This document shows, piece after piece, positions 97 to 38,426 of a DNA stretch of 50,251 nt (the stretch's first letter is position 1; each line of letters begins with the position of its first letter). The DNA is from Bdellovibrionota bacterium. GTDB taxonomy: Bacteria > Bdellovibrionota_C > UBA2361 > OMII01. The DNA is taken from NCBI GenBank assembly GCA_044356215.1, contig JBIKWQ010000015.1:1-50251 (forward strand), in the 5' to 3' direction. Made by a program: the position numbers and the translations under genes. The notes beneath the pieces are model-generated. The model did no database searches, was not told the origin of the DNA, and saw only the letters and a list, made by a program, of their open reading frames with translations.

Positions 97-113
97 GGGC
101 TTTAGGGCGTTGT

Positions 114-142
114 TTGACTAGCCACCCGCCTAGATGTAAAAC
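114..142 (+). promoter_or_regulatory. Putative sigma70 promoter (TTGACT-N17-TAAAAC), start site near ATG 149
   Basis: -35 at 114-119, -10-like at 137-142; ATG 6 nt further with no Shine-Dalgarno. Confidence 0.45.
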
Positions 143-148
143 AATAGT

Positions 149-905
149 ATGTGTAGGATGTTTCTCCAAACTCACTACGGTTGAAGAAACCCCAACATTT
201 GAACTTCTATCTGCGCCCAACTCTCTTAAGAAGCAGGCGTACTGCGCCAACCTGATAAATGGGGAAAAGGGACCGCATAATGATGGCTGTGGAGTGGCGT
301 GGCTTGAGGGTGAAACTATTCGTTTAGATAAAAGAGGTCCAAATTCGGGGTGGGACTCCTATTTTGAAAACCGCATCAATTCATTGGCAACCAGAGCCTT
401 AATTGCGCACAACCGGAAAGCATCTACAGGATTAGAGATCAACCAGGAGATGTCACATCCCTATCAAATGGAGTACCGTAGCGAATCGATCGCGTTCTGT
501 CACAATGGAGGGATCAAAAGCTTCATGGAGGAGGCGCGGGATGATAGAATAGCGGATTCTCGGGTGTTTATTAATCGCCTTGCCAATAACATCTCCTCGC
601 TGACCCTCAGCGCCCTTAAAGATTTTCTCGCTGAAGCCGCCGACTCATGGGACTACACCTCAATCAGCGCCCTTCTACTCACGCAGAATAGCATATTTGC
701 TTGGCGCTGTTACCGAGCCAATGAGAGGAATCTCGAAAAAAGGGACGCCTATTACTCTCTCTATCTTCGTGACCGTCCGGACCAGGCCTGCCTCGCCTCA
801 GAGCCAATCGATAAAGAACGGGATTGGGAGCCACTTAAAAACAGAACGCTACTAGAGCTGCGCCAAATTGATGGTCGTATAAAAATTGAGCGGGTCACAT
901 TTTAG
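149..905 (+). pseudogene. Class II glutamine amidotransferase (YafJ/EgtC-like) with +1 frameshift after codon 4-5
   Basis: ATG TGT AGG ATG (MCRM, N-terminal Cys nucleophile) at 149 is one frame off the body (HNDGCGVAW, IAHNRKAS, HPY, FCHNGGI, DS, ASEP); removing one T of TTT161-163 gives MCRMFSKLTT... Confidence 0.8.
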
Positions 906-1293
906 CCTCTGTACTGTGATGGGACTAGCATCAGCTAGCTTCGATGCTCAATTTGGCGATAAAAACACTGATCTAGTCGCTATCTGCACCTCTGACCGTA
1001 ACGACTGCGCTAAGAGTGCGATTAAGCAGCTTCCAGTTCGGTGCACCGCTCGGTTTAGAAAAGACTTTGATAAATCGATCGCATCTTGCCAGGCTGACAA
1101 AACACTAACAGAACTATCTGCCTGCTTAAGAGAGGCAAAAGCGGCGATGAAATCACCTAGTTTTGCCGCGTGCAAAGACGCGAAAAGCATAATAGCCAGG
1201 CGCCAAAAGATCTCTGTGCCAACCGCGACGACACCCGCATCTAAGGTGCTGGCTAAAACATGCCCAGACCTTTTCAAGAAGGTTAATAGTTAA
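886..1293 (+). CDS. Small Cys-rich, probably secreted hypothetical protein (start uncertain)
   Basis: 135-aa ORF, 8 Cys, Lys/Ala-rich, weak signal-like N-terminus overlapping the upstream stop. Confidence 0.55.
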   Translation: MSGSHFSLCTVMGLASASFDAQFGDKNTDLVAICTSDRNDCAKSAIKQLPVRCTARFRKDFDKSIASCQADKTLTELSACLREAKAAMKSPSFAACKDAKSIIARRQKISVPTATTPASKVLAKTCPDLFKKVNS

Positions 1294-1305
1294 AACCTCA
1301 GAAGA

Positions 1306-1535
1306 GGCATCGCCGGATACCACTACTTTGAGGGGCTCTCAGCAATCGACTCCTTCGCCAACGCTGCGATGATCCTCTCAGGTATGGGCCCATTAAATCA
1401 ACTAAGTACCGACAGGGAAAGATCTTCGCTGGAATCTACGCTCTCTTTAGTGGGCTAACATTTATAACAGTCGCTGTTGTGGTTCTATCACCGATTGCTC
1501 ATCGTATCTTTCACCGCTTTCATCTGGAGCCTTGA
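1306..1535 (+). pseudogene. 5'-truncated, frameshifted small membrane protein (potassium-channel-like two-TM family)
   Basis: Reads GIAGYHYFEGLSAIDSFANAAMILSGMGPLNQLSTD / GKIFAGIYALFSGLTFITVAVVVLSPIAHRIFHRFHLEP*; frame changes at ~1414; in-frame stop at 1291 and no start codon. Confidence 0.7.
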
Positions 1536-1588
1536 CCTCTTAATCCTGCACCTATCTCCTCCTCCTTCTCCTTGTCCTCATTCTGCAC

Positions 1589-1614
1589 GGTCAATCCCTA
1601 AATAGAGTTTACAT
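1589..1614 (+). repeat. GGTCAATCCCTAAATAG..TTACAT dispersed repeat, copy 1 (IS-end-like)
   Basis: 17-bp core identical at 1589, 2045 and 10970. Confidence 0.8.
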
Positions 1615-1706
1615 CAAATAAGCTATTTTGAGGTAAGGGGGCCACGGAGCGATGAATAGCTGTTACAGGGGAATAGCGATAACCAAGCCTAGGGCAAGCC
1701 CACACT

Positions 1707-1731
1707 AAGCGGCGCGGGAGCGCCGCGCTCC
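1707..1731. repeat. REP-like palindrome
   Basis: GCGGCGC-GGGA-GCGCCGC hairpin followed by GCTCC. Confidence 0.5.
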
Positions 1732-1754
1732 GAAAGATGCTCCTTTAATCCTAG

Positions 1755-1913
1755 CCTCTGTGATCCTCTGTGTTCCTCTGTGTTTCCATTCTAGATGTTA
1801 CGGATAGGGAGAAAACCACAGAGGTACACAGAGTATCACAGAGGTTATAATCCAAAGAGTCAGCCAGGCCACGATTAAATTATATTCCCCTCTCTGTGTT
1901 CCTCTGTGGTTTC
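1755..1913. repeat. Cluster of CACAGAG/CTCTGTG 10-bp-period repeats in alternating orientation
   Basis: CCTCTGTGWT x3 (1755-1784), inverse x3 (1815-1844), forward x2 (1891-1910). Confidence 0.8.
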
Positions 1914-1951
1914 CTCTTCCCTTGAGCCTGTAGAACTATCTTAGAATAAAT

Positions 1952-2000
1952 TCTACATTGAGGTCGCGGAGGGCCACGGAGATTGAACTTTGCTTATTTC
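1952..2000 (+). repeat. Dispersed repeat homologous to the left arm of the 23716-23808 hairpin
   Basis: TCTACATTGAGGTCGCGGAGGGCCACGGAGATTGAACTTTGCTTATTTC vs TCTACATCGAGGTCACGGAGAGCCGCGAAGATTTTACTTTGCTCATTTC; related fragment at ~1630-1657. Confidence 0.75.
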
Positions 2001-2044
2001 ACCTATCTGAAGAGGAGGAGATAGGTGTAGGTGCAGGAGAAAGA

Positions 2045-2069
2045 GGTCAATCCCTAAATAGGCTTACAT
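2045..2069 (+). repeat. GGTCAATCCCTAAATAG repeat, copy 2
   Basis: Exact core match to 1589 and 10970. Confidence 0.8.
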
Positions 2070-2091
2070 GTTTTTCTCCTAATTCTTCTCT

Positions 2092-3819
2092 TCATCCTGC
2101 CTTATTCCCCCCCCCTCCCCTCAACTCAACAACCCGATCAACCCGAGCCAAGGTCTCTAGACGGTGCGCTATCGTGATTACAGTTCTATCAGCTAAAGCA
2201 TCCCTTAATACCGACTGAATCGCCGCATCAGTGATCGTATCAACTCCACTTGTTGGCTCATCGAGCAAGACAAAGGGCTGTTTTGACAGAACCACCCGCG
2301 CTAAACACACAAGCTGTCTCTGGCCTACTGATAAGTTGCTACCTCCCTCAAGGATCGGCATATTGAGATCAAATGAAAGCCCTGTTGTTATTAACGCCTC
2401 ACGCACCTGCTCGTCTGTGTGGTGATTTAAACGATCTATATTAGACCGCAGTGTTCCCTCAAAGAGATACGGATCCTGCGGGACAACCGCAAATAGATCA
2501 CGCGCCTGATTGACAGGCATCTGCAAAATCGACCTGCCACCTACAGTAATATCTCCACCACGAACGTATACCATCCTAAAAAGAGCCTGTACAAAGCTAG
2601 TCTTTCCGGAGCCAGTCCTACCAACAAGTCCGACCTTAGAGCCGCTTTTTATCGTCAGGTTTAGGTTATTAAGGATAACAGGAGTGTTCTCACGGTAGCT
2701 CATTGAGTAATTTTTAAACTCTAGATCTCCCGGATGCTCATCCAACACAAGATTATTCACGACTTCATCTGCACTATCACGCTTTACACCATCGGCGCTC
2801 TCCTCTGATGGAAGATCCACATATTCAAATACACGTCTTGCGTGGCCAATAGTCTCGAACAACATTCCAAGGGACCATGTTAGCCACTTAAAGACCATCG
2901 AGATCTTAAACGAAGCCGTGATTATTACCCCACCTACCACAGGTGAAAGCGATCCGGAATGAATTCCTAGGTAGACAGCGAGCAGGATAACCGAACCGTA
3001 GACCGCGACACCCAAGTCCGCGATACACTGCCCCCACGCCTCTATACGCCCGCGCAAGAAATGCATCTGCATAAATCCGTGCGCGGCGTCACCTAGCCTT
3101 CTCATAAGCGCTGGCAACTGGCCGTAGATCGCGTAACACCTAACACCTTCAATCAGGTCAGTCTCACGGTGAAGCACCTCACCAAAACGCGCCGAGCGTA
3201 AAACAATTAGCTTCTGTAAGATCGGTGCTATATTTCGCTGCACGTAAAGGAAGAATAGAAATGTTGGGATCGCTATTAACGCCGCGACTGGACTCGCTAA
3301 CGCCACAACCCCTGTAATCACCATCAGATCAACAACCGCCGATGATGTATCTCCCAACCTTACCGGTAGCATCATCCTTAAACTATCAGCGTCTTTAACG
3401 ACCCTATTGATAATCTTTCCCGATGGGTACTCATCAAAAAATGTCGTTCGAGTTGCGTTTAAACCCTTAACCATCTTCTGACTTAAACTCTTGGCAAAAA
3501 CTTGGCCGCCCGACTCAAAAGAGATCCACTGGATAGCGCGAATGATAAACGCGCATATAACTAAAGCAGCGAGTGTGTATATCGTTAAATTAACGGCAAT
3601 ACCCGCGAAGCTAACAGCCGCTGAGTCTCCTCCGCCCTCAACCAGAGCGCCACACCCCCAGGTCACTAATTGAGGGACTAGAGATCCAGCTAATCCGATA
3701 ATCAGATTAGGTATCAACATGTAGCGAATAAACGGAACCTCGCGGAGATAGCGCCGAAGCAACGTGAAGTTTCCCTTAATCTCACCAGCGGTTTCTTGAG
3801 TAGTAAAGGTATCAGCCAC
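2092..3819 (-). CDS. ABC transporter TMD-NBD, ABCC/MRP second-half type
   Basis: [49 protein letters not shown]; likely start GTG 3819 with GGAGGAG upstream, overlapping the stop of the partner gene. Confidence 0.9.
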
Positions 3820-5716
3820 CGTGCTCCTCCACTGCTCTAAGATAGCTAGAGAACCGCGAGTCTGAATCCTTGGCGAGGAGCTTAGGATCTCCATCCTCAA
3901 CGATCCGTCCACTATCTAAAACCACCACACGATCACACCGCTCCAGTTCAGCCAAACGGTGCGACACCAATAAAAGCCCCTTTGCTTCATTTAAGATCGT
4001 TGTAATTAATGCTCGCTCTGTGGTTTGATCTACGGCACTTAACGGATCATCTAGAAACATCACCGGGCGCTTTGAGATAAACGCTCGCGCCAAACTAACT
4101 CTCTGCCGCTGACCGCCTGAGAGATTTATCCCCGACTCGCCCACCTCTTCTTCTAAACCTCGAGAGAAGAGCGCTAGATCTGTGGCTAGTTCCGCCATAT
4201 CGATCGCTTGCGCAACACTCTGCTCTGAAGATGCGCCCGATAGATCTATATTTAAGCGCATCGAGCTGTTTGAAAGAAAAGGCTGTTGCGGTGAATAGGC
4301 GACGTGAGAGCGAAACGCGTGATAAACATCAGATCTCCACAATGGCCCAAAGCTACCATCACTAAACTTAATCGAGATCTCACCACCTGATGCAGGTAGC
4401 TCACCTAAGAGGATCTCTAGCAAAGTAGTCTTACCACTTCCGACAGATCCAACTATCGCCGTGCGCTTAGTTAGATCAAACTCAACCGAGATCCGATCTA
4501 GCGCGACTCTCCCAGCAAAATCGTGTCGAAGATCCCTTACTATCACCGCGACCGGAGTCGCGCATTGATCTACCTCTCTATTACTCGCGCCGTTAGCTGC
4601 TGGGTCAAATCCTTGAATCTCATCATCAAGCTCAGGTTGCTCTAAAAGCTCCAGCGTCCGCCCGGCTCCAGCCGAAGCCGAACCAAGGAGCGAGAACGAC
4701 CACGGGATCCACTGGATGCTGAGCATGACGTGCTCAATTAACCAAAATGAAGAGAAGAGCTCCGCGACCGAGAGATCCACATTACGCGCCTTTGCCACGA
4801 ATATTAGAGTAACAAGTGGCACGATCGACCAGCTATGCGAGATCGCCCAAACAAATAATCCGATACCGTGTCGCAGCGCCGCGAAGTTTACATACGAGCT
4901 AGCACGCTGGTTTATCTCTGATTGAATCGTGTCGCTCCACCCCAAGAACCTAACTAACCGAATGTTTTTTACCCATTCGCCAACCGCTGTGATTAAAGAG
5001 TCCTGCCGCTTCTGCACAGCTCTCTGAACAAACTCAATTCCGTACATCCCGAGCGACGCGAGCGGAATTAAAATAAGACCAACACTTAAACTAATCAAAC
5101 CTATTGGCCCAGATAAGATCCAAATAGCCGGGATCGCCACAAATATAGAGACCAGCGCTGGGGTCCACTGTTGTAGTGCTGCGCTTAAGAAATCCTCGAT
5201 CGCCTCAACGTCAGAACCAATTAAGGTTTTTAATTGACCCTTGGAGAACTTAATCCGCCCCGCTGGCGAGATACGCGCCAACTTCTGATTGATTACATGA
5301 TAGAGCGTTATCTGAATACCGCGGTGTATCTGAAGACGCCTGCAGACGTTTCTATACTCTATCGCAATCTGCGCGACCTTTATTGTGAAGTAGAGTGAAA
5401 CGAGACCTACTCCAACCCACAAGGTCGCCCGCGCCTGAAATATCTCGCGCGCCAAAAGAGTGGCCGAGAGGACTAAAAGGGCGCTAGCTAGGCTCCAGAC
5501 CAGTACCTCAGCGATCAGATCTGACAGGGAGCGCAGCACCCAGATAAATAAAGAGAGCTTTGAGCGGATCCGCGAGGTATCGATCTCGGCGTTTGCCGCG
5601 GCGATATCGAGCTGGCGCTTAACTGCCTTGTGCAGAGCTATCGGCTCAAATTCAGTCGCCGCTAATATTTGCCGCCTGTGCTCCGCGGGTGATCTGAGAA
5701 ACTTAAATTTATACAT
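3812..5716 (-). CDS. ABC transporter TMD-NBD, ABCC/MRP first-half type
   Basis: [40 protein letters not shown]-terminal TM helices. Confidence 0.9.
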
Positions 5717-5940
5717 CTTATAAGACGCCGTTTCATCCTATCGAAGCACCTTAACCGATACCTTTACCGATAATTAGGCATCATCTTTCTAGGTAATAGG
5801 GATCTAACACCAACCTGCTGCAAACGTTGTTTTGCAAATAGTGGTCGTTGATAGTTGCTTAATCGCCCCCTTAACCTGTAAAGAGATGAGCTCCTCTTGC
5901 ATCGGATACTATATATATAGAGCACGGACAAAGATACACC

Positions 5941-8652
5941 ATGGAAAAGCGGCTAGTCATCGTCGAATCCCCAACTAAGGCCAAAACGATCAGTAAATTC
6001 CTGTCTAACGACTTCGAGGTTTTGGCATCGTACGGCCACGTTAGAGACCTGCCGACCAACGCGTCTGAGATCCCCGCTGACTTAAAGAAGCAAAAATGGT
6101 CGCGACTTGGAGTAAATGTCGATGATAATTTCAACCCTCTCTACGTCGTTCCGGCTGACAAAGAGAAGCGGGTTAATGAATTAAAGAGAGCCGTAAAGAA
6201 CGCCTCAGAAGTATATCTCGCAACCGACGAAGATCGCGAAGGAGAGTCGATCAGTTGGCACTTATTATCTCTTTTAAACCCAAAGGTTCCGGTTAAAAGG
6301 CTCGTCTTTCACGAGATTACCAAGAAAGCGATTGAGGAGAGCTTACAGCATGCCCGCACAATCGATGAGAACTTAGTTCGCGCTCAAGAGACGCGCCGAA
6401 TTATTGATCGCTTATACGGATACTCTGTCAGCCCGCTACTGTGGAAGAAGATGGTCCCCCGTCTAAGCGCGGGTCGCGTTCAGAGCGTGGCTATTAGGCT
6501 ACTAGTTCAGCGAGAGCGCGAGAGAGCTAAGTTTAGATCCGCTGATTTCTGGGATCTAAAAGCTACATTTGTATCACCTGAAAACCCAAATATCCCATTT
6601 GACGCGACCCTTACTCATGTAGGTGATAAACGCGTAGCGGATGGAAAGGACTTCGACTCAAATACCGGCAAGTTGCATGGCAAGAGCGACGTAGTCCTCT
6701 TAGATGAGGCCGCGGCGACTAAACTCTCTGAGAGCTTAGCGAAGACTCAAGCTAGAGTATCAGAGGTTGAGAGCAAGCCATTTACTCAGAAGCCTTACGC
6801 GCCATTTACAACGAGTACGTTACAACAGGAGGCTAACCGCAAATTAGGCTTCGGGGCGAAACGCACGATGGCCGTCGCGCAGACTCTTTACGAGAACGGT
6901 TTCATCACCTACATGCGTACTGACTCAACGACATTGTCAGAAGAGGCTTTAAGCGCGGCGCGCAGCCTAATCTCGCGTGAATTTGGGCCTGATTACCTCT
7001 CTGAGCAACCTCGAATCTACAAAACTAAGGTAAAGAACGCTCAAGAGGCGCACGAAGCGATCAGACCAGCGGGGGTTGAGTTCACACACCCAAGCGTTGT
7101 TAAGGATCGTCTGGGGCTTGAGGCGGTTCGTTTGTATGAGCTGATCTGGAAACGCACTCTGGCATCTCAGATGAGAGATGCTGAGGGCACAAGGGTCGCT
7201 GTTTCTGTCGCCGTTGATAACGCCACATTTAAGGCTAGCGGAAAGACGATCTCGTTTCCTGGATTCTTAAGAGCATACGTTGAGGGCTCAGACGATCCAG
7301 AGGGCGATCTCGCCGATCAGGATCGCAACTTACCACCACTAAAAGTTGGTGATGGTGTTAACTCAGATAAGTACGATGTAGTTAAGCACTCAACTCAACC
7401 TCCGGCGCGCTTTACTGAAGGTAGCTTGATTAAGGAGCTTGAGCGCTTAGGTATCGGACGCCCGAGTACCTGGGCAACTATCGTAGATGTAGTTCTCTCG
7501 CGTGATTACGCCTTTAAAAAAGGCCCAGCGCTTGTGCCAAGCTACCTAGCGATAGGTGTGACGGGGCTACTAGAGGGTTACTTCTCGCATTTAGTGGATT
7601 ACGAGTTCACCGCTAGACTAGAGGACGATCTAGATTCGATCTCTCGTGGTGAGTTAGACAACTTAGAGAAGCTGCGCTCTTTCTACTTCGGAGAGCAACA
7701 AGCCCTTAAAGGTTTAAAAGATCTCGTTTCCGAGGGAGATCAAACGATCGACCCAAGAGAGGTCTGCGGAATACGACTTGGAGAGGATTCTAAAGGACGC
7801 AAGGTCGAAGTCCGCATCGGGCGCTATGGTCCGTTTCTCTCAAATGGAGAGGATCGGGTTGGAGTCCCTGACTCACTCCCCTTTGATGAATTAACACCCG
7901 AGGTAGCGGAGAAGCTACTTGTGGCTGGAGCGAAGAAGGCCGAGGCGCTCGGTATAGATCCGGTTTCAAACCTTCCCGTTTACTTTAAAAGTGGACGTTT
8001 CGGGCCGTATTTTCAACTAGGTGATATGGGCGAGGGTGGTACAAAGCCTAAGATGGCCTCAATCCTCCCTGGTATGAACACCGAATCCGTAACTCTAGAG
8101 TTAGCGCTGCGGATCTTGGAGCTACCAAAGGTCATCGGAGTTAACCCTGAAAACAACACAGAAGTACTGGTGGCGAATGGAAAGTTCGGTCCGTATGTAA
8201 AGTGCGGAACTGATAGCCGCTCGATCCCAGCAGACGAGTCACCATTAACTATCTCTCTTGAGCGCGCACTTGAGCTACTCAAGCAACCACGAGTAGCCGC
8301 TCGCACAACGAGTCAGCCAAAGACCATTAAGGAGCTAGGCAAAAACCCTGAGAGTGGCGAGACGATCCAGATTAAGAACGGAAGATACGGACTCTACGTC
8401 ACAGATGGAACTATTAACGCCACTCTGCAACAAGGTGTTGATCCTGAGGCGATAACCCTCGATGAGGCGATCTCTTTAATTAAAGCGAGAGCCGAGAGAG
8501 GCCCAAGCAAGAAGAAGCGTGGCAAGCGAGCCCCAAAAACAGCCGCTGATGGAGCGGGAGAGGAGAGCGCTAAAAAGCCTAAAAAAACCTACGCTAAATC
8601 TACAGATAAGAAGAAAACTAAGAGCCCAAGAAAGAAAGCCGTCGGAGACTAA
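5941..8652 (+). CDS. topA: DNA topoisomerase I
   Basis: LVIVESPTKAKTI, ATDEDREGE, SAGRVQS, ITYMRTDS, AQEAHEAIRP, C-terminal GRYGPY-type repeats, Lys-rich tail. Confidence 0.98.
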   Translation: MEKRLVIVESPTKAKTISKFLSNDFEVLASYGHVRDLPTNASEIPADLKKQKWSRLGVNVDDNFNPLYVVPADKEKRVNELKRAVKNASEVYLATDEDREGESISWHLLSLLNPKVPVKRLVFHEITKKAIEESLQHARTIDENLVRAQETRRIIDRLYGYSVSPLLWKKMVPRLSAGRVQSVAIRLLVQRERERAKFRSADFWDLKATFVSPENPNIPFDATLTHVGDKRVADGKDFDSNTGKLHGKSDVVLLDEAAATKLSESLAKTQARVSEVESKPFTQKPYAPFTTSTLQQEANRKLGFGAKRTMAVAQTLYENGFITYMRTDSTTLSEEALSAARSLISREFGPDYLSEQPRIYKTKVKNAQEAHEAIRPAGVEFTHPSVVKDRLGLEAVRLYELIWKRTLASQMRDAEGTRVAVSVAVDNATFKASGKTISFPGFLRAYVEGSDDPEGDLADQDRNLPPLKVGDGVNSDKYDVVKHSTQPPARFTEGSLIKELERLGIGRPSTWATIVDVVLSRDYAFKKGPALVPSYLAIGVTGLLEGYFSHLVDYEFTARLEDDLDSISRGELDNLEKLRSFYFGEQQALKGLKDLVSEGDQTIDPREVCGIRLGEDSKGRKVEVRIGRYGPFLSNGEDRVGVPDSLPFDELTPEVAEKLLVAGAKKAEALGIDPVSNLPVYFKSGRFGPYFQLGDMGEGGTKPKMASILPGMNTESVTLELALRILELPKVIGVNPENNTEVLVANGKFGPYVKCGTDSRSIPADESPLTISLERALELLKQPRVAARTTSQPKTIKELGKNPESGETIQIKNGRYGLYVTDGTINATLQQGVDPEAITLDEAISLIKARAERGPSKKKRGKRAPKTAADGAGEESAKKPKKTYAKSTDKKKTKSPRKKAVGD

Positions 8653-9539
8653 TGGCAACGATCTTCTTAGTATCGGTACTGTTTTTTATACTAGGCGCCA
8701 TTATCGGCAGCTTCTTAAGCGTCTGCGTTTATCGAATCCCGATGGGCAAATACGAGCCCACTCGTGAGGGGATCAAAGAGCTAGATCACCCCGTGTCGAT
8801 AATATCCCCGGCGCGATCATTCTGCCCCAACTGCGAGCAGCAGATCGCCTGGTACAATAATATCCCGATCGTTTCATGGCTGACTCTGCGTGGCCGCTGC
8901 GCTTCGTGCGACGCTTCGATTCCATTTAGATACCTTCTAATTGAATTGCTCACGGCATTTCTCTCGGTTTGTTGCTATCTCCGTTTCGGGTTTGGCTTAA
9001 CAGCCTTTGTGGCTCTTATCGTTGTATCAGCGCTTGTCGTAATTACATTTATCGATATCGACTATATGATCATCCCGGATCTGATCACCTATCCGGGGAT
9101 CGCTTTGGGACTCCTACTGGGTGCTTTATCGTCGCTCCTTAACGGCTCAGGAATCCTTCCGCTACAGCTACCATTCGCGCAGAATTTCACCGATTCATTC
9201 GCCGGGGTCACGGTAGGCGCTGGAATACTCTACTTAGTGTGGTGGTTGTACCTAGTAATCAGACGGCGCGAGGGCTTGGGTCTGGGCGATATCAAGTTAC
9301 TTGGGATGCTGGGAGCTATCTTTGGATATGAGTGCGCCCTGGCTACTATCTTTGTTGGTTCGGTGCTCGGTTCTGTTTTTGGTCTCCTTCTGATTCTGGC
9401 TGGGAAGCACAGGTACTCTATGCACCTTTCGTTTGGACCTTACCTAGTCGTAGCCTTTATTTTATTTCTCTTTAACTTCCTAAACCTGATTAACTATCTT
9501 CGAGGTGTCACCAGCGGCACGATCTGGAGGGCGTTTTAA
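8652..9539 (+). CDS. pilD: Prepilin peptidase / N-methyltransferase
   Basis: GSFLSVCVYRIP, two CxxC motifs, DIDYMIIPD, GLGDIKL, FGPYL; TAATG overlap with topA. Confidence 0.93.
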   Translation: MATIFLVSVLFFILGAIIGSFLSVCVYRIPMGKYEPTREGIKELDHPVSIISPARSFCPNCEQQIAWYNNIPIVSWLTLRGRCASCDASIPFRYLLIELLTAFLSVCCYLRFGFGLTAFVALIVVSALVVITFIDIDYMIIPDLITYPGIALGLLLGALSSLLNGSGILPLQLPFAQNFTDSFAGVTVGAGILYLVWWLYLVIRRREGLGLGDIKLLGMLGAIFGYECALATIFVGSVLGSVFGLLLILAGKHRYSMHLSFGPYLVVAFILFLFNFLNLINYLRGVTSGTIWRAF

Positions 9540-10943: not shown

Positions 10944-10969
10944 GGGGGTGCGGCTGGATATCCCACATG

Positions 10970-11058
10970 GGTCAATCCCTAAATAGGCTTTACATTTAGC
11001 AACCGTGCACGGTAAACGTCTCTCGTGCTCGTGCACAAAAACGTGAGACGTTCACGTG
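10970..11058 (+). repeat. GGTCAATCCCTAAATAG repeat, copy 3, followed by CGTGCAC-type palindromic repeats
   Basis: Exact core match; ACCGTGCACGGT and AACGTCTC...GAGACGTT palindromes follow. Confidence 0.7.
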
Positions 11059-11200
11059 GGAGAGCAGATCTAGGGACCGATCCACGACAAACGATGACTA
11101 TACTCAACATAAGCAGCCCCCTCCCAACTTCCCCTACCCCTACCAAATCCCGCGTCTTTATAAGCAGATAGCCAGACTAGCGCACGAGCCCAAGAAAAGC

Positions 11201-11367: not shown

Positions 11368-11373
11368 ATAAGT

Positions 11374-13050: not shown

Positions 13051-13054
13051 TTTA

Positions 13055-13451: not shown

Positions 13452-14690
13452 GTGGCAAGACGTACATTAAATGTTTACCTTCGCGATCACATCGTCGGGC
13501 AGCTTATACAGGACGAGCATGGGCAGATATTGTTTATCTACTCACACTATTGGCTTCACCATCCTGAGACGACCCACCTATCGCACTCTCTACCACTAAG
13601 AGAAGAGCCGTTCTCACGAAACGAGTGTCGGGGATTTTTCGCCGGAGTTCTTCCAGAGGAAGAGAAGCGCGAGATAATAGCCAAGAATCTCGGGATCAGC
13701 GCGCGGAACGACTTCGCGATGCTTGAGCAACTCGGTGGCGAATGCGCGGGGGCTGTAACACTGATTCGCCCCGGTGTCGATCTCCCCTCTAGCGCGGCCG
13801 GTAGTTATCAAGAACTCTCTTCGAGTGAGCTCTTAGAGATATTAAGAGCCTTGCCTAAGCGTCCACTTTTGGCCGGTGATACTGGCATCCGCCTATCGCT
13901 CGCTGGCGCTCAAGATAAGATTGCTGTTCGAGTTAATGGAGATAGGATATCGATCCCTAAAAATGGCGCCGCTAGTACGCACATTATAAAGCCTGCTATC
14001 ACGAGGTTTCCTGGATTAGTTGAGAACGAGGCATTCTGCATGAAATTAGCCGCGGCCGTGGGACTTTCGGTGGCGGAGGTCTCAGTCGGAGAGATAGAAG
14101 ATATAAAGTTTCTCTTGGTCAGGCGCTTTGACCGTACAATCAATGAAAACGGAGTGATTGCAAGGATCCACCAAGAAGATATCTGTCAAGCGCTGGGTTA
14201 CCCTCCCGAGCATAAATATCAATCAGAGGGAGGTCCCGGCCTAAAGGAGTGCTTTAAGCTTATTCGGGCGACATCAAACAATCCAGCCGCGGATCTTAAA
14301 GCTCTATTAGAGGCTCTTATCTTTAATCTAATAATCGGAAATAACGACGCCCACGCTAAAAACTTCTCTATTATTCACCACCAAAACAACACAACGCGAT
14401 TGGCGCCTCTTTATGATCTTATTTGCACCGCCGCGTATCCGGAACTTACCTCCAAGATGGCGATGAAGATAGGTAAGGCCGCGATATTTGATCAGATCTA
14501 TCCGCGAGAGATAGACCGCCTAGCCGATGAATGTGGGTTAAACAGAACCCTGACTAGAGAGAGATTAACTAACCTGGCACACGCGATCGAGCTAGCGACA
14601 AAAACTCTCCGGAGCAACCTAAATTACGGCGCTGACATAGCGGATCTGATAGTCTCTAGATGCGAAGCAGTTATAGAGCGATTTCAATAA
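13452..14690 (+). CDS. hipA: HipA family Ser/Thr kinase toxin
   Basis: N-terminal LSHSLP/LPE domain, SLAGAQDK P-loop, HQED, GNNDAHAKNFS, LAPLYD. Confidence 0.95.
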   Translation: MARRTLNVYLRDHIVGQLIQDEHGQILFIYSHYWLHHPETTHLSHSLPLREEPFSRNECRGFFAGVLPEEEKREIIAKNLGISARNDFAMLEQLGGECAGAVTLIRPGVDLPSSAAGSYQELSSSELLEILRALPKRPLLAGDTGIRLSLAGAQDKIAVRVNGDRISIPKNGAASTHIIKPAITRFPGLVENEAFCMKLAAAVGLSVAEVSVGEIEDIKFLLVRRFDRTINENGVIARIHQEDICQALGYPPEHKYQSEGGPGLKECFKLIRATSNNPAADLKALLEALIFNLIIGNNDAHAKNFSIIHHQNNTTRLAPLYDLICTAAYPELTSKMAMKIGKAAIFDQIYPREIDRLADECGLNRTLTRERLTNLAHAIELATKTLRSNLNYGADIADLIVSRCEAVIERFQ

Positions 14691-23649: not shown

Positions 23650-23715
23650 ATCGGGGGGCATGTTTTCCCTTCTTTCTCCCCCTAATCCTTCTTATCCTCT
23701 TGCTACAAAATATAA

Positions 23716-23808
23716 TCTACATCGAGGTCACGGAGAGCCGCGAAGATTTTACTTTGCTCATTTCGTCAACATTCATCGCTCTGTGGCCCTCCGTGATCTC
23801 GATGTAGA
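23716..23808. repeat. Imperfect long hairpin repeat
   Basis: TCTACATCGAGGTCACGGAGAGCCGCG ... TGTGGCCCTCCGTGATCTCGATGTAGA. Confidence 0.8.
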
Positions 23809-23894
23809 CTCTAGGAAGAAGAGGAGATAGCTGTTCACAGGGAGCTTCTCCGCTCCCCGTCACTTCATGTAAAATCTTCTCTTGCCGCCATAGA

Positions 23895-24055
23895 CAGAGC
23901 GTCGCAGTGTTTTTGGTAAGCTGCTGAGACGATTAGTAAAATTTTTTACCACAGAGGACGCAGAGGACACAGAGAAAACCCCATAATTGCCCATAAAATG
24001 GCCGTTCTCTGTGTCCTCTGCGTCCTCTGTGGTGATAAAGAACTGCGACGCTCTA
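23895..24055 (-). mobile_element. MITE-like hairpin element, full copy with 14-bp flanking direct repeat (13/14)
   Basis: TIRs CAGAGCGTCGCAGT / ACTGCGACGCTCTA; flanks CTTGCCGCCATAGA (23881-23894) and CTTGCCCCCATAGA (24056-24069). Confidence 0.92.
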
Positions 24056-24101
24056 CTTGCCCCCATAGACACCCGCTCCCCACTTAGTAGATACTGAAAC
24101 G

Positions 24102-27400: not shown

Positions 27401-27418
27401 TGTTAGCTAGTCCTAACA
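27401..27418. promoter_or_regulatory. Palindromic TGTTAG-N6-CTAACA box in a divergent intergenic region
   Basis: TGTTAGCTAGTCCTAACA, near-identical to 17211-17228. Confidence 0.5.
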
Positions 27419-27568
27419 GAGGGTGTTTTATCGTTGCGTTTAGTAGCCTTCTGCCGCGTATTAAGGGCCCTGTCCCAATCTTTTCTCCATGGCGAATTTC
27501 TAATCGACTCCTAACGTTAAGATTATAGATCTGCAAAGAATTGAGATTTACATTCAGGGAGTGATTTT

Positions 27569-28228: not shown

Positions 28229-28260
28229 TCTAGCGCCGGAATCCAAGGCAATTACTGATT

Positions 28261-30036: not shown

Positions 30037-30188
30037 AAGAGACCGTGGTTATAGCATCTGAGATGGTGAAGTAAAGTTGTAACTACTCGAAAGACCAGCG
30101 ATGACACCGAGGGACGAGAGCTGACTATTACCCACATCCTCGGTGATAAGTCTTCACAGAGAGTGTTCAGGACAATAGGTAGGTAAAA

Positions 30189-30399
30189 CTCTTTCCCAGC
30201 TCGCCGTTCTCATTTACTCTTTGTAAAGAATGAGCAATTCGTTAATCCTAAGCAATTTTTTCACAACTAGGCCAGCGAAGGGAAGGTATAAGCCGCACCG
30301 TCAGTATCCCCCCCCTCTGTCCGTTCTCGCTGGCCTCTTTGTTTAAATTAAAACCTCAGCGGATCCTTTTTGTACAAAGAGAGCGGCGAGAGAAAAGAG
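30189..30399. ncRNA. Candidate structured RNA or inverted-repeat cluster (rod-like, ~210 nt)
   Basis: Outer stem CTCGCCGTTCTC/GAGAGCGGCGAG with CTCTTT/AAAGAG, inner stem AGGCCAGCGA/TCGCTGGCCT, AT-rich central bubble; no family recognised. Confidence 0.4.
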
Positions 30400-30490
30400 G
30401 GAGGAAGTATAAAAGAGGTTGAGTGCTGCCTGGCAGGACTGAACTAAATCCAAGATTATTACCAATACATCTCCCCTCTCAGCTACTACT

Positions 30491-30499
30491 TGTGGATAA
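30491..30499 (-). promoter_or_regulatory. Single perfect DnaA box
   Basis: TGTGGATAA in the recJ / mntA divergent region. Confidence 0.35.
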
Positions 30500-30598
30500 A
30501 GTTAAAGGTCTGGGGTAGCTATTTCCAGTGAGTGCCTACGTATTACTTTTTCGACCGCTCTGGGCATGGTATCCTTTCCGCGGATTGGTTTATACAGC

Positions 30599-30991
30599 AT
30601 GTTAATAAAAACTCGATTAAAGCGCGGCTTCCCTGGAATCGACGCGATCTTAAGACGACATAAAGTAGAGCTCGCGTATATCTTCGGCTCGACCGCCAGT
30701 GGCGATCGGCTAAAGAACAGCGATGTCGATCTCGCTGTTATGTTACCGCGAAAGCTTAGCTCTCAAGCCCGTTTTAAAAAACGGCTAGGGCTAATCGCCG
30801 ACCTAACCGATCGCTACCGCAAGGATTTCGATGTGGTTGTCTTAAATGACATCGAGTCACCGATATTTAACTTCTCAATTATCGCCAGCCGAGGATTGGT
30901 CTACTGCCCGGATGAATTAGTGGCGCTAAATTTCGAATCAAGAGTTCTGGCTCTTCATGATGAGGCTGTGTTTATTAGAGAGAGAGATTAA
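30599..30991 (+). CDS. MNT minimal nucleotidyltransferase antitoxin (MntA-like)
   Basis: YIFGSTASGDRLKNSDVDLAV (GS-x10-DxD), DVVVLN; start 30599 or 30566. Confidence 0.88.
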   Translation: MLIKTRLKRGFPGIDAILRRHKVELAYIFGSTASGDRLKNSDVDLAVMLPRKLSSQARFKKRLGLIADLTDRYRKDFDVVVLNDIESPIFNFSIIASRGLVYCPDELVALNFESRVLALHDEAVFIRERD

Positions 30992-31413
30992 TGTCTACGA
31001 AAGCACGGGCGATTATCGTCGCGAAATTAGCTAGGTTGGCGGAGTACCTCGGATATCTAAAGGAGCTCGGTCGCTTCGCCGAGGATCGATTTATTAAGGA
31101 CTACAGGCTGTACGGGCTAGCTGAGCGGTATTTGCAATTATCGATTGAGATCGTAATTGATATATCCAGGCAACTCTTAATCGTTCTTGATGTTGAGAGA
31201 CCTGAGTCCAATACAGAGATGTTTGAGATCCTTGTTGAACGAAAAATTATCTCTCGTAAACTATACGAGAAATTAAGACTCATGGTCGGTTTCCGTAATA
31301 TTTTAGTTCACGACTATATGAAGATCGACCGAAGGGTGGTCTACAGAGCTCTCAAAGATGAGCTAAGAGATATCGAGCAATTTAAGCGAGCAGTCAATAA
31401 GAAGCTAAAGTAA
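30991..31413 (+). CDS. HEPN/DUF86 RNase toxin (HepT-like)
   Basis: ERYLQLSIE, GFRNILVHDY (R-x4-H-x-Y); TAATG coupling to the MNT gene. Confidence 0.9.
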   Translation: MSTKARAIIVAKLARLAEYLGYLKELGRFAEDRFIKDYRLYGLAERYLQLSIEIVIDISRQLLIVLDVERPESNTEMFEILVERKIISRKLYEKLRLMVGFRNILVHDYMKIDRRVVYRALKDELRDIEQFKRAVNKKLK

Positions 31414-31455
31414 TTAAGTAAACCCAGCCTGAATCACTCGCTCAGGGTTACCACC

Positions 31456-32241
31456 CTACCTATACAAAAACGGATAAATAACCATAGTCCGCGCATACGA
31501 CAGCGCCTTTAGCGGAATCGTCCACCAATACTTAAAGCTCTTTATCGCCGACGCCACAGCGACTCGCATATCATCTCTAAACTGTTTTCCGTAAGAGGTG
31601 TTACTCTTTGTCCCCTCGATCCTTCTAAATCCAGCGATATCTCGCGGCAAAACTATCGGCGCTCCAGCTACCTTGGCTATCCTTAGCCAGTACTCGTAAT
31701 CCATCACTAGGTTTTCACGCTCTGAGAAATATCCAACACGTGTAAGCGCATCACGTCTTAGGAATACAGCGGGCTGACAGATAAAGTTCTCAATTAATAG
31801 GAGGCTGTAAGAGTAATTTCTTAGAAGAAAATTCTTGTAGCGAGTAATTATCCCGTGAAACTCAGCCCCTGATTTATCGATAATCGCGCACTGACCTACT
31901 AGCCAGAGCTTATCGGGGTTGTTTTTAAACTCAGTCACCACACTACTTAAAGCACCCTCACGGTAAACATCATCGGCGTTTAAGAAAGCGATGATATCCC
32001 CTGTGGCGTGGCGTAAACCTAGATTAATTCCCTGTGATTGATTCGTTCCGGTGGCGTCGATTAATTTAATCCGCTCACCGTAGCGTGAGATAATCTTTAA
32101 AGTATCATCTTTAGAGCCGGCATCGGTGATGATGTACTCTAATTCAAAATCACCACTCTGCGAGAGGATACTCTCTATCGTATCAACGATAGTGGCCTGC
32201 GAATTAAAGCACGTGGTGACTATCGATACCTTCATCGCCAC
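31456..32241 (-). CDS. Glycosyltransferase family 2
   Basis: VSIVTTCFN, ITDAGSKD, FLNADD, ICQPAVF, MDYEYWLR. Confidence 0.92.
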   Translation of the reverse strand: MAMKVSIVTTCFNSQATIVDTIESILSQSGDFELEYIITDAGSKDDTLKIISRYGERIKLIDATGTNQSQGINLGLRHATGDIIAFLNADDVYREGALSSVVTEFKNNPDKLWLVGQCAIIDKSGAEFHGIITRYKNFLLRNYSYSLLLIENFICQPAVFLRRDALTRVGYFSERENLVMDYEYWLRIAKVAGAPIVLPRDIAGFRRIEGTKSNTSYGKQFRDDMRVAVASAIKSFKYWWTIPLKALSYARTMVIYPFLYR

Positions 32242-32250
32242 CGATACTAC

Positions 32251-32682
32251 TTACTTAGCGGCTAAAACCTTAAGCGCCTCGATGCGGGCTACCTTCTGGC
32301 TTAAAGCCTCCCACTCAGGATCGAATAGGCTTAATGTCTCTAACTGTGTCTTTAGAAGTGAGATGTCCTGATTAACAAGGGCTGTATCGAGCGAATCAGG
32401 GTTATCTACCGTATCAGCTAAGAGTGTTAAGGTAGTGCCCTTAAATGTGCAGATTCCACCTGATACTAAGCACCTCTTAACAGAAGCGGTGGCATTAACT
32501 CCAGTCGCTTGGCTAACCGAGTAAGAAACTAACCCGGTGCCAAGCAACCCTACGTACTCACAGTGATCCGCCAGGACGCCGATCTCGCCGTTCTCGGTTG
32601 GTACGGTAACCTCTGTTACTGTGGCCTCGATCTCTAGTCCACGACCAGAAAAGACCTTTAATTGAAAACTGGCGTCAGTCAT
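32251..32682 (-). CDS. atpC: ATP synthase F1 epsilon
   Basis: VPTENGEIGVLADH, VSGG, LADT; position after atpD. Confidence 0.9.
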   Translation of the reverse strand: MTDASFQLKVFSGRGLEIEATVTEVTVPTENGEIGVLADHCEYVGLLGTGLVSYSVSQATGVNATASVKRCLVSGGICTFKGTTLTLLADTVDNPDSLDTALVNQDISLLKTQLETLSLFDPEWEALSQKVARIEALKVLAAK

Positions 32683-32714
32683 CTATTCCTCACTCACTAT
32701 GATAAAGAATGTCT

Positions 32715-34196
<1,482 letters not shown>

Positions 34197-34200
34197 TTAT

Positions 34201-35091
34201 CTACTTAAGCGCCTCAGCTCCACCTACGATATCGAGTAGCTGGCTGGTAATTCCGCTCTGACGCAGCTTATTACGCTTAAGCGTCAATGAGTGGATCAGC
34301 TCTTTGGCGTTCTTTGTAGCGTTATCCATCGCTGTCATACGGCTTGCATGCTCGCTAGCCTTTGTATCAAAGGCCGCTTGACGGGTCATCGCGCGCACGA
34401 TACGAGGAACAACAGCGTCGAACACACGTTGTGGATTTGGCTCAAAGAGGGTGATTCCGGTTGCCGCGGCGCCCGCATCAACAGCGCTCACCGTAACGGC
34501 ATCGCGGCTTAGTGGGATCAGTCGCTCTGCAACTGCGGTCTGCGAAATCGCTGAGCGGAAACGGGTATAAACCACGTGCAGCTCATCGAACTCGCCCTTG
34601 ATAAAATCGATCTCTAGCTTCTGACAGAGATCTTGAAGCGGCCAAGCAGATGGATCATCGCTTAAGCTCTCAAGCGCCTCTACATAAGGACGTCCCACAC
34701 GGCGGAAATACTCAGCCGGTTTCTTTCCTAATAGAACACTCGATATCTCGCATCCTGGATGCTTTTCGGCTAGCTCCTTGCAGAGCTGCTCAAAGCGTCT
34801 ATTTACGTTTGTGTTAAAGGCGCCGCACAATCCACGACTCGCCCCAAGCACCAACACGCGAACCTTCTTCACCGATTGCTTCGCCTCTAAGAGCGGGTGC
34901 GAGAACTCGCCGGTGCCACCCTGTAGCTGCGCTAACACACCCTTTAGGGAATCTGTGTAGGCGCGCGAACGGGTTACCGCCTCCTGCGTCTTCCGCAGTT
35001 TAGCGGCCGACACCAGCTTCATCGCTGAAGTGATCTTCTTTGTGTTGTTCACCGACTTAAGGCGTCGGCGAATCTCCTTTAAGCCTGCCAT
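34201..35091 (-). CDS. atpG: ATP synthase F1 gamma
   Basis: KITSAMKLVSAAKL, RGLCGAFN, SRMTAMDNATKNA, RQSGIT. Confidence 0.98.
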   Translation of the reverse strand: MAGLKEIRRRLKSVNNTKKITSAMKLVSAAKLRKTQEAVTRSRAYTDSLKGVLAQLQGGTGEFSHPLLEAKQSVKKVRVLVLGASRGLCGAFNTNVNRRFEQLCKELAEKHPGCEISSVLLGKKPAEYFRRVGRPYVEALESLSDDPSAWPLQDLCQKLEIDFIKGEFDELHVVYTRFRSAISQTAVAERLIPLSRDAVTVSAVDAGAAATGITLFEPNPQRVFDAVVPRIVRAMTRQAAFDTKASEHASRMTAMDNATKNAKELIHSLTLKRNKLRQSGITSQLLDIVGGAEALK

Positions 35092-35105
35092 GCGCTATCG
35101 CTCCT

Positions 35106-36707
35106 TTATGCCGCTGTAGCGTGAGTCTGTTGCCCCTTAGCGGCTCCGGCGTGAGCGCCGTTTCCGTTAGTCGAGACCTTTTGAGCGCTAACCGCTGTTC
35201 CAGCGATGAACTGCTCAAGGAATCCACCGATCGCCTTATTTAAGCGCTCAGTAATATCCTTGGTTAGCTCAGCCTTAGTGCGGAGATCGTTCATAAGATC
35301 TGTCTGGCTCGTTAACATGTAACGGTGCAGAGCATCCTCGAAAGGACGAACTTGAGAAACCTCAAGCTTATCCGTAAATCCGTTAGCGACCGTGTAGATC
35401 GAGAGAACCTGAAGCTCTACCGGCATCGGCACGTTCTGTCCCTGCTTTAAGATCTCAACGAGACGAGCGCCCTTAGCGAGCTGCGCTCTTGTAGCAGGAT
35501 CTAGATCTGAACCGAACTGCGCGAACGCTTGCTTCTCACGGTACTGAGCGAGATCGAGACGGAGAGTTCCGGCGATCTTCTTCATCGCCTTAACCTGTGC
35601 TGCTCCTCCTACACGCGATACCGAGAGACCTACGTTTACCGCTGGTCTGATACCTGAGTTAAAGAGATCGGCCTCTAGGAAGATCTGACCATCTGTAATC
35701 GAGATTACGTTGGTTGGGATGTATGCTGACACATCGCCTTCGAGTGTCTCAATGATCGGCAGAGCTGTTAAAGATCCACCACCCAAAGCGTCACTTAACT
35801 TAGCAGCACGCTCTAAGAGGCGGCTGTGTAGATAGAACACGTCTCCTGGGTAAGCCTCACGTCCTGGTGGACGACGAGTTAGGAGCGAAACCGCGCGGTA
35901 AGCTACTGCGTGCTTGGTTAGATCGTCGTAGATCACCAAAGCATGCTTGCCTTTGCCCATGAAATACTCGCCCATCGCGCATCCGGTGTACGGAGCTAAG
36001 AACGACATCGGGGACGGCTCTGAAGCAGTAGCGGCAACCACGATTGTGTGGTCCATAGCGCCGTGCTCCTTAAGACGCTCTACCACCTGAACAACAGATG
36101 AGCGCTTCTGGCCGATAGCTACATAGATACAGATTACGCCGTTACCCTTCTGATTGATGATGGTGTCGATCGCTACAGTGGTCTTACCGGTTTTCTTATC
36201 ACCGATGATAAGCTCACGTTGACCACGACCAACTGGGGTCATCGAATCGATCGCCTTTAGACCGGTTTGCATCGGCTCGTGAACGGACTTACGACCAACG
36301 ATTCCAGGGGCCTTGATCTCGATACGACGAGTCTCAGTTGTCTTGATATCACCAAGTCCGTCGATCGGATTTCCAAGAGCGTCAACCACGCGGCCAACTA
36401 GCTCATCGCCTACTGGAACTGCGGCGATCTTGCCGGTGCGCTTAACCGTATCGCCCTCGGCGATCTCGGTGCTCTCACCCATAACAACCACGGCAACCTG
36501 ATCCTCTTCGAGGTTAAAGGCCAAACCCTTTGTGCCGTTAGCGAACTCCACGAGCTCACCCAACCCGACCTTTCCTAGGCCGTAAACACGGGCGATTCCG
36601 TCTCCAACGCTCAGCACTGTGCCGACCTCGCTGAGATCCTGATTGGTGGTTGCGCCACCGATCTTCTCTTTGATGATTCTGCTAATCTCATCTGCTCTTA
36701 TGTCCAT
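35106..36707 (-). CDS. atpA: ATP synthase F1 alpha
   Basis: [45 protein letters not shown]. Confidence 0.99.
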
Positions 36708-36746
36708 AGCGTTCCTTTCCTCTTCGATTGTTATCTGTAAATTTAC

Positions 36747-37313
36747 TTAAGCTAGCTGCGACGCGAGGCGTTGTAGTGTTCCAGCTACGGAACGATCTAA
36801 AAGCCTATCGCCAATCCGAATCGTCATACCACCCAACAAACTCGGATCGTGTTTAACACTTACCGTTACCTCTCCGCCTAAAGACTGAGAGAGCCGCGCC
36901 TTAACATCAGAGATAACCTCTGGTGTAACAGGATTAGCGACGCTTACCGACAACGTTAAGCTCTTACGGTACTCATTAACGAGCGCGCTGAAAAATTCAG
37001 AAACGGCAGGGAATATCGCCGCTTTGCGCAGGCTAACTAAGGTCTGCACTGTGCGCTCTGTCGCCTGATTCGCCCAACCATTAACTCCACTAACGGAGCT
37101 TAAAGACTTAACCAAGCTATCAACTATCTCAGCACGTGTATTATCCTGAACACTAGGATTAAGCATGCTCTGACGAAACTCAGGGGAGCCGCTCCATACT
37201 GAGGCCAACACCTTTAACTGCGCCGCAGTTGCGTCGAACTCAGTTGGTTGGCAGACCTCAAAGAGCGCTCTCGCGTATCTCTTTGCAACTCTGTCGTGTT
37301 TTGCCGCTGTCAT
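36747..37313 (-). CDS. atpH: ATP synthase delta
   Basis: VAKRYARALFE, DPSLLGGMTIRIGDRLLDRSV. Confidence 0.95.
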   Translation of the reverse strand: MTAAKHDRVAKRYARALFEVCQPTEFDATAAQLKVLASVWSGSPEFRQSMLNPSVQDNTRAEIVDSLVKSLSSVSGVNGWANQATERTVQTLVSLRKAAIFPAVSEFFSALVNEYRKSLTLSVSVANPVTPEVISDVKARLSQSLGGEVTVSVKHDPSLLGGMTIRIGDRLLDRSVAGTLQRLASQLA

Positions 37314-37361
37314 CTACTAATCGCCCCTACTCTAAAGTTTTGTTGTTTCGATCCCCGTTAT

Positions 37362-37961
37362 TTAGTTCTGAACTAAGCTCTTAGCGCGAGTTACCGCCGC
37401 CGCTTGGTAAGCACTGTCTCGTCCAGCGAAATCTCCCGAGGCAAAACGCTCCTTAGCTAACTGCAGAGCGCGCGATACAAGCGACTGCTTAAACGATACC
37501 TGCGCGGATCTCGTCTCTCCCTTTAATAGCTCACGTGCCTGGTCTTTAATTCGCGTGGCACGTTGCTGCGCCTGCTTAATCACATCATCAGCCTCCGCGT
37601 TGGCCTGCTCTACTAACTGCTGCTTAATCTTATCCTGCTCTAGTGGGAGCACCTTGATTAAGGCCTCGATTGCGTTTAGCTCGCGCTCTGCCGCATCTAC
37701 ATCTTCCCCCGATTGAGTCACTGTCTGCTTGATGCGAGCGACTCGCGCGGCCCACCCCTTGGCGAGCGGCTTGCGAAGGATGTAAGTCATTAAACCGATA
37801 TAGAGGACGAAGTTAATCCAGTAGAATGTCAGATCGCCAATGGATGGCTCGCCGTGACCAGACGACGCGAACGCTGCGCTCGGTAGCGCGGTAGTAACCA
37901 GTGCTAAAGAGTTTAATACTTTAGAGATAGAGTTCATGTTGGTGCTTTCTGAGATCGTCAT
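37362..37961 (-). CDS. atpF: ATP synthase F0 subunit b
   Basis: Leader ...AFAS, TM WINFVLYIGLMTYILRKP, long coiled coil; position before atpH. Confidence 0.85.
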   Translation of the reverse strand: MTISESTNMNSISKVLNSLALVTTALPSAAFASSGHGEPSIGDLTFYWINFVLYIGLMTYILRKPLAKGWAARVARIKQTVTQSGEDVDAAERELNAIEALIKVLPLEQDKIKQQLVEQANAEADDVIKQAQQRATRIKDQARELLKGETRSAQVSFKQSLVSRALQLAKERFASGDFAGRDSAYQAAAVTRAKSLVQN

Positions 37962-38048
37962 GCGTTTATTCTTAAATCTCTCTTTCAGTAGCTTGTTTTT
38001 TGGCCGCCGGTCTCACCGTATCTTTAGAGCGACCAGTAAAGCGCCGGT

Positions 38049-38077
38049 AGGATAGCCGCAAACGGTTGAGAAGTCGA
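38049..38077 (-). promoter_or_regulatory. Putative atp operon promoter (TCGACT-N17-TATCCT)
   Basis: Canonical spacing on the minus strand, 16 bp from the MITE end. Confidence 0.45.
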
Positions 38078-38093
38078 TATTTCGGAGGTGAAA

Positions 38094-38256
38094 AAGGGCG
38101 TCGCAGTTCTTTATCACCACAGAGGACGCAGAGGACACAGAGAACGGCCATTTTATGGGTAATTATGGGGTTTTCTCTGTGTCCTCTGCGTCCTCTGTGG
38201 TAAAAAATATTTTACTTATTATCCCAGCAGCTTACCAAAAACACTGCGACGCCCTG
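38094..38256 (+). mobile_element. MITE-like hairpin element, full 163-bp copy
   Basis: TIRs AAGGGCGTCGCAGT / ACTGCGACGCCCTG; 29-bp internal inverted repeat; no local TSD. Confidence 0.92.
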
Positions 38257-38264
38257 CTAAAGCC

Positions 38265-38426
38265 CAGAGCGCAAAGTATTTTTTGTAATCCTCTGGGATA
38301 ATTAGTGACATATTTCTACCACAGATGACGCAGGCGACTCGGCGAAAACTCGATAATTGCCCGTAAAATGGCTGTTCTCTGTGTCCTCTGCTTCCTCTGT
38401 GGTGAAAAATAACTGCGCGCGCTCTT
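38265..38426 (-). mobile_element. Degenerate older copy of the MITE-like element, inverted and adjacent to the previous copy
   Basis: CAGAGCG...ACCACAGATGACGCAG...ATAATTGCCCGTAAAATGGCTGTTCTCTGTGTCCTCTG...ACTGCGCGCGCTCT. Confidence 0.85.

Follow-up and report, generated by a model that had tools for sequence, protein, structure and literature searches.

Exchanged target duplications around a 38-kb block in a lake-water Bdellovibrionota genome probably reflect an assembly mis-join at identical inverted MITE copies

Exchanged target duplications are a described record of recombination between mobile elements. In Halobacterium salinarum they are known as hybrid target-site duplications (hybrid TSDs), for example at the inversion between a pair of ISH8B copies on pHS3 (PMC7002104), and in Drosophila the inversions 2s and 2x3 were made by the miniature inverted-repeat transposable element (MITE) BuT5 (PMC3698922). 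False inversions that arise when an unbridged inverted repeat is wrongly resolved have also been documented (HINGE, PMC5411769), and metagenome assemblies are described as containing k-mer paths without read coherence or a real counterpart (PMC8172020). Here, we analyzed a stretch of 50,251 nt (the window), which is the entire contig C73 of a lake-water metagenome-assembled genome (MAG) of a Bdellovibrionota bacterium (GCA_044356215.1, contig JBIKWQ010000015.1). The genome comprises 3.24 Mb in 131 contigs and is 96.5% complete and 1.2% contaminated, and the public runs that match it best are lake-water metagenomes. Two identical, inverted copies of a MITE of ~162 bp bound a block of ~38 kb in this window (block B, 97-38093), and the target duplications of the two copies are exchanged. 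Our analysis indicates that the swapped flanks are probably an assembly or library chimera, not a flipped chromosome segment.

The locus resembles the H. salinarum case in having two inverted copies that lack duplications of their own and that share two hybrid duplications between them. In H. salinarum, by contrast, the genomes are complete and contain both assembled junctions, and for one inversion the two orientations appear in long reads (PMC7002104), whereas here there is one junction, seen in contigs alone. With BuT5 the locus shares non-coding MITE copies and duplications exchanged at both breakpoints (8-9 bp in BuT5), although BuT5 is a eukaryotic element of ~1 kb whose inversions are fixed in species (PMC3698922). 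The HINGE case is alike in that two inverted identical copies allow two graph traversals, the wrong one of which flips the segment (PMC5411769); it differs in that the present repeat is only 162 bp long, comes from a short-read metagenome and carries duplications that reveal the ancestral traversal. Literature searches aimed at this kind of event found no paper on this element or locus, which does not prove its absence from print.

Because window base 1 is the first base of C73, the first copy (1-96, minus strand, element positions 96 to 1) is a half copy at a contig tip. It is 100% complementary to 38094-38189 and is followed by flank a (97-105, GGGCTTTAG), the exact reverse complement of 38257-38265; with bases 96 and 38266 the match extends to 10 bp, so that flank a (96-105, minus strand) and flank c (38257-38266, plus strand) read as the two halves of a 9-10-bp target duplication. 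The full-length copy at 38094-38256 (plus strand) lacks a duplication of its own, its flanks differing at 8 of 9 positions, and appears to be a hybrid with its left end from an atpF'/atpF site and its right end from a site upstream of an amidotransferase gene. A control copy at 43912-44074 (plus strand) carries the 9-bp CTCGTGCAT on both sides (43903-43911 and 44075-44083, the whole spanning 43903-44083). An earlier sequence-only reading of the window had pointed to all three features, which we confirmed, and had predicted that the flank beyond the far end of the first copy would pair with the sequence just left of the second. That flank was found at the start of contig C31, which opens with 120 bases of the same MITE variant followed by GAGGTGAAAA (flank d), the partner of flank b (38085-38094, plus strand); C31 overlaps the window start by 53 nt, all of it element sequence. 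The duplications thus pair a with c and b with d, and the assembly joins b to c and leaves a and d as tips. Finding the predicted flank on C31 cannot decide between a real inversion and a wrong traversal, since both give identical letters.

In the whole genome, the 9-mer of flank a occurs 29 times and its 10-mer 6 times. When all left MITE flanks were compared with all right ones, we found 21 cross-matches among 14,399 pairs, about half of which are ordinary loci split into two tip halves. In 20 trials with random flanks, the same number of pairs produced 0-1 matches each time. A mere target preference behind the 9-bp match, which had been kept as an alternative, is ruled out by the exact pairing of both flanks and by this control. 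The full-length match to the shared variant of the twin copies is confined to C73:38094, C73:1-96 and C31:1-120, but the 16-mer GGGTAATT taken as its mark occurs 5 times in the genome, and the leading A common to both copies is weak evidence, since at each site it can be counted as the final base of the local duplication (likewise at C7:14603 and C46:50629).

Exchange of both duplications is the classic signature of inversion by homologous recombination (PMC7002104, PMC3698922), and the copies are identical over 161 bp, as would suit a real, recent, one-off event between them that became fixed or common in the source population. We consider this explanation distinctly unlikely. Of the marks of an exchanged-duplication inversion, the locus has inverted copies at the segment ends, both duplications exchanged and, at the atp junction only, a segment reversed relative to the ancestral order; it does not have two continuous new junctions, as the second one, a-d, is unassembled and coincides with a contig break.

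The gene order on the two sides of the break bears on the ancestral arrangement. The genes on C31 beside flank d are parA, parB, a bactofilin gene and atpF', all directed at the element. The atpF' gene (b' subunit; C31 140-616, minus strand) lies ~20 bp from the MITE end; its Pfam score is below the cut-off (E 4.5e-5), and its closest named relative is in an uncultured Bdellovibrionales MAG (71% identity). The window holds the remainder of the cluster, atpF-atpH-atpA-atpG-atpD-atpC (32251-37961, minus strand). Lying ~20 bp downstream of the atpF' stop codon and 132 bp upstream of the first atpF ATG, the break splits the atp cluster itself, parting atpF' from atpF, and is not upstream of the atp promoter, where it had been placed from the sequence alone. 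Joining b to d restores one co-directional cluster, parA-parB-bactofilin-atpF'-MITE-atpFHAGDC, which a recombination inversion, if this unlikely event had happened, would have separated into atpFHAGDC and the parA-parB-bactofilin-atpF' run. Among the best 19 of 28 relatives' loci with an atpF match, atpF' stands directly upstream of atpF in 15, a second b-type gene takes this place in one, and three are cut by contig ends, a synteny that supports the un-flipped order. Moreover, guanine-cytosine (GC) skew in the duplication-consistent order was +0.095 for C31, +0.046 for the block and +0.045 for the right arm, and fourfold-degenerate sites gave the same sign once genes were split by strand. The strand skew is in register with both neighbors in the un-flipped order only, which would make any recombination inversion a very recent event.

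Metagenome contigs other than those of the MAG were also compared. A 26-nt probe from flank b had a single match among Joint Genome Institute (JGI) metagenome contigs, L022, which reads flank b, the duplication, the same MITE variant, the duplication again and then atpF' and 2.9 kb of C31, with 14 differences from this genome in 3378 bp. Four metagenome runs (X1, X2, X3 and X7) were compared as assembled contigs. In X7, a contig of 3083 bp spans 36500-38099 and then runs straight into C31 sequence, with no MITE between them, as an empty site. Contigs of X1 and X2 end 30 nt inside the element on both sides, and X3 covers the c side only, up to the element. The b-c join was seen in none of the four runs, the contigs of which could not have shown it. 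L022 and X7 together prove that b-MITE-d exists and is ancestral. Gene order, independent contigs and strand skew agree that 97-38093 is drawn opposite to its ancestral orientation. This part of the earlier proposal of a flipped block stands; its headline, recombination between the two elements, is less favored than a mis-join at the repeat.

The L022 arrangement also provides a donor state for another route to a real inversion, intramolecular replicative transposition. In this scenario, the copy at the atpF'/atpF site would have targeted an unoccupied site in trans at a distance of 38 kb, duplicating itself and inverting the intervening DNA in a single step that explains both the rare shared variant and the closeness of the twins; an intact a-MITE-c allele would then never have existed. 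Such an outcome is known for IS6-family elements (PMC7986276). In X7, flank c is found without a MITE end before it: record 28 of this run begins precisely at 38257 and has 102 further letters, which hints weakly at an empty site. We consider this route very improbable. Nearly all young copies of the family retain a simple duplication (27 of 31, allowing up to 2 mismatches), the cognate transposase was not found in the assembly, and the explanation fails for three further hybrid copies described below, whose parents differ. With both routes taken together, a real one-off inversion is unlikely.

The a-c side offers less to compare. A search for the a-side flank in species-representative genomes gave no match. 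The amidotransferase gene is present in 11 of 34 genus genomes, and none of its 6 window neighbors was matched within 1.5 kb in the 9 relatives' loci checked, so synteny is uninformative on the a-c join. No usable open reading frame (ORF) with a start codon in flank b runs across flank b, the element and flank c.

The assembly mis-join that we favor would have come about as follows. In the organism, two identical, opposite MITE copies would lie 38 kb apart, each with a target duplication of its own, the first at the atpF'/atpF boundary and the second upstream of the amidotransferase gene. The element (162 bp, with a strong hairpin) would exceed the largest k-mer in length, and probably the reads as well, so the copies would collapse into one graph path with two entries (a and b) and two exits (c and d). 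The assembler, or a chimeric library fragment, would run entry b into exit c, producing a hybrid copy that mimics an inversion and leaving a and d (C31) as dead-end tips. What the assembler did is inferred, as is the presence of an intact a-MITE-c allele. Consistent with such a graph, eight contig pairs overlap by exactly 127 nt, which points to a de Bruijn assembly at k = 127; we take this overlap to be the mark of a SPAdes-type assembler. The six orphan halves of the three exact hybrids (see below) hold only 74-120 nt of element each, too little to reach the shared path at k = 127; once a and d are dead ends, no branch remains on the path from b through the element to c. C73 itself ends within one of the identical copies and reads through the other.

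Hybrid copies recur in this genome. Three full copies have both flanks exactly matched by contig-tip halves (C73:38094, C78:30297-30136 and C99:4037-4196), and in a fourth, C9:89759-89601, one flank is matched exactly and the other with 1 mismatch; in all cases the partner ends are orphans at contig tips. The C78 hybrid parts an ispE-like kinase gene and prs from rplY-pth. Of 19 relatives' loci, 16 have prs next to and ahead of rplY (one is cut by a contig end, and two have no prs within 1.5 kb). The C9 hybrid ends in 64 bp of flank of which C90 has a second copy at its start, joined to a MITE end of its own (exact end overlap of 126 nt), so that this hybrid coexists with an un-rearranged end. 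Between any two of the 88 full copies of the family there is no reciprocal flank exchange, even when 1 mismatch is allowed. As the genome has 39 tip halves against 88 full copies, about 1/5 to 1/3 of loci are broken at contig tips, and we roughly estimate the probability that three real events would all lose their second junction at 0.01-0.03, assuming independence. The C78, C99 and C9 hybrids are probable mis-joins. For a recombination inversion at C73, this recurrence is doubly awkward: the same one-sided pattern is present at three other loci, and two of the four hybrids would split housekeeping clusters that are conserved across the order.

Several observations weigh against a mis-join. 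The stretches shared in the C78, C99 and C9 hybrids are ~58, 37 and 11 bp, too short for plain collapse at k = 127, and presumably short-overlap gap closing or chimeric fragments would be needed there; the switch window covers the second hairpin arm in two of these three. Other classes of identical copies were placed correctly (6/6, 3/3 and 2/2 copies, 11/11 in all, each with its own duplication), which speaks for a recombination inversion. The only two loci of the variant lie 38 kb apart in 3.24 Mb, for which we estimate a chance of ~2.5%, and a mis-join leaves this closeness of the twins unexplained. Local hopping is unsupported as its cause, since full copies on the same contig are within 2 differences in 1 of 20 pairs, compared with 37 of 1156 for other pairs. 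L022 (0.4% divergent) and X7 (about 1.7%) represent other strains, with which a later inversion in this lineage is still compatible. Lastly, the intact a-MITE-c join was seen nowhere in the contigs examined.

The family to which the twins belong fits the description of a bacterial MITE. The element is ~162 bp long (161-bp core), non-coding and dispersed, with 13-bp terminal inverted repeats; genome-wide we counted 88 full and 64 partial matches, and the target duplication is accompanied by an empty site in a relative strain. The 35-bp internal arms of the copy at 38094-38256 form a strong predicted hairpin (z = -13.5), and an Rfam search returned no family at gathering score, only sub-threshold microRNA hairpin models. 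Among the 31 full copies at least 95% identical to 38094-38256, 21 have a perfect 9-bp duplication and 6 have one with 1-2 mismatches. The core of the duplication is commonly 9 bp, and many reach 10 or 11 if the terminal base is counted in. In a few copies, whose terminal base is not the usual T or A/G, this base equals the neighboring target base; such duplications read as 10 bp minus one terminal base, which may reflect the cutting geometry. One further copy in the window (23895-24055, minus strand) has a 15-bp duplication with one mismatch (region 23880-24070) in place of the usual 9 bp, and an older one (38275-38417, minus strand, 83% identical) lies beside flank c.

Known ISAs1-family elements have inverted repeats of 14-22 bp beginning with CAGGG and a 10-bp duplication (PMC11946415). 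The MITE is alike in its ends (T/C-AGGG ... CCCT-A/G), its 13-bp terminal repeats and its 9-bp duplications that often extend to 10; among the 38 copies with perfect duplications, one end begins with CAGGG in 19 and with TAGGG in 17, and the opposite end is mostly T-AGGG. It is unlike them in that its duplication is usually 9 bp and that no ISAs1 transposase was found in the genome assembly (the MAG is 96% complete, and copies of insertion sequences (IS) are often left unassembled), so a kinship would rest on the ends. The single DDE_Tnp_1 gene of the genome shows no MITE-like ends in the 2.2 kb viewed around it, and no long end-pair with a duplication was found that could be an autonomous partner. 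Among 35 genomes of the genus the MITE is essentially limited to this one; elsewhere, one genome has a 73-bp match at 86% identity and seven have short hairpin-arm matches only.

The size of the family bears on yet another explanation, a reversible switch, with the two orientations present side by side and convertible into each other. The block is flanked by identical inverted repeats whichever way it lies, and long reads of H. salinarum 91-R6 show both orientations of a transposon-bounded inversion (PMC7002104). The repeats here, in contrast, are members of a family of 88 full copies and not dedicated locus-specific sites, and no recombinase family was detected among the 36 window ORFs with NCBIfam (17 of them also searched against Pfam), the search being confined to the window. 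We regard a switch as highly improbable.

The family also shows an orientation bias. Based on crude ORF calls, genes are transcribed away from the MITE end that faces atpF (the first end) in 62 of 81 flanks, compared with 46 of 82 at the other end, and in co-directional gaps genes leave the first end in 14 cases versus 4 (p = 0.03). An outward promoter or a one-way transcription block in the MITE is possible. A real inversion might thereby be tolerated, since in either orientation a MITE separates atpF from the break, and expression of atpF might continue. Set against this, a promoter scan of the MITE found one sigma-70-like site (38209-38238, minus strand, pointing to atpF), compared with 0.7 expected, which is the chance level, and no terminator. 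It is accordingly a long shot that the b-c join is real, that the population flips the 38-kb block beside parAB by MITE recombination and that an outward MITE promoter keeps the cut-off atpFHAGDC expressed, with prs and rplY parted in the same way. Were the join both real and able to reverse, uncoupling of ATP synthase genes by a MITE would be an unusual finding, and core housekeeping operons of a wild freshwater bacterium would be subject to rewiring by a young MITE family.

For biology the import is small, because an artefact is the likeliest explanation and a real one-off inversion between repeats is well described. For method, the target duplications of an abundant MITE act as barcodes, flagging four probable chimeric joins in a 96%-complete MAG, and when the halves of a duplication are separated and one of them sits at a contig tip, a mis-join is best assumed until reads show otherwise.

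Block B holds further features. The class II glutamine amidotransferase (EgtC-like) gene next to flank a (149-905, plus strand) has an MCR start at 149 that is out of frame with the rest, the frame being left from about codon 5, whereas an in-frame MCR start is present in 9 of 9 relatives' genes checked; the gene is either a pseudogene or carries a sequence error. The block also contains topA (5941-8652, plus strand), a HipA-like gene (13452-14690) and an MntA/HepT type VII toxin-antitoxin pair (30566-31413), and small inverted-repeat elements of other families were found at 1532-2070 and 23711-23813. To the right of the older MITE copy, 1.48 kb (38418-39899; an AbiEii-like nucleotidyltransferase gene and two small ORFs) are missing from a contig of run X7. 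This is a strain-variable insert, and in the X7 contig the neighboring old MITE copy has an intact end. The right tip of the contig is a long repeat array with a 12-bp period (49053-50251), which has a 71-nt overlap with contig C14.

Target duplications also pair other contig ends of this genome: C80/C120, C127/C68, C19/C117, C103/C40, C83/C1, C112/C116, C106/C108, C54/C129, C90/C128 and C100/C128, together with C3/C62 and C50/C98 at one mismatch in the duplication. These duplication-paired contig ends, about a dozen, could be used to scaffold the genome.

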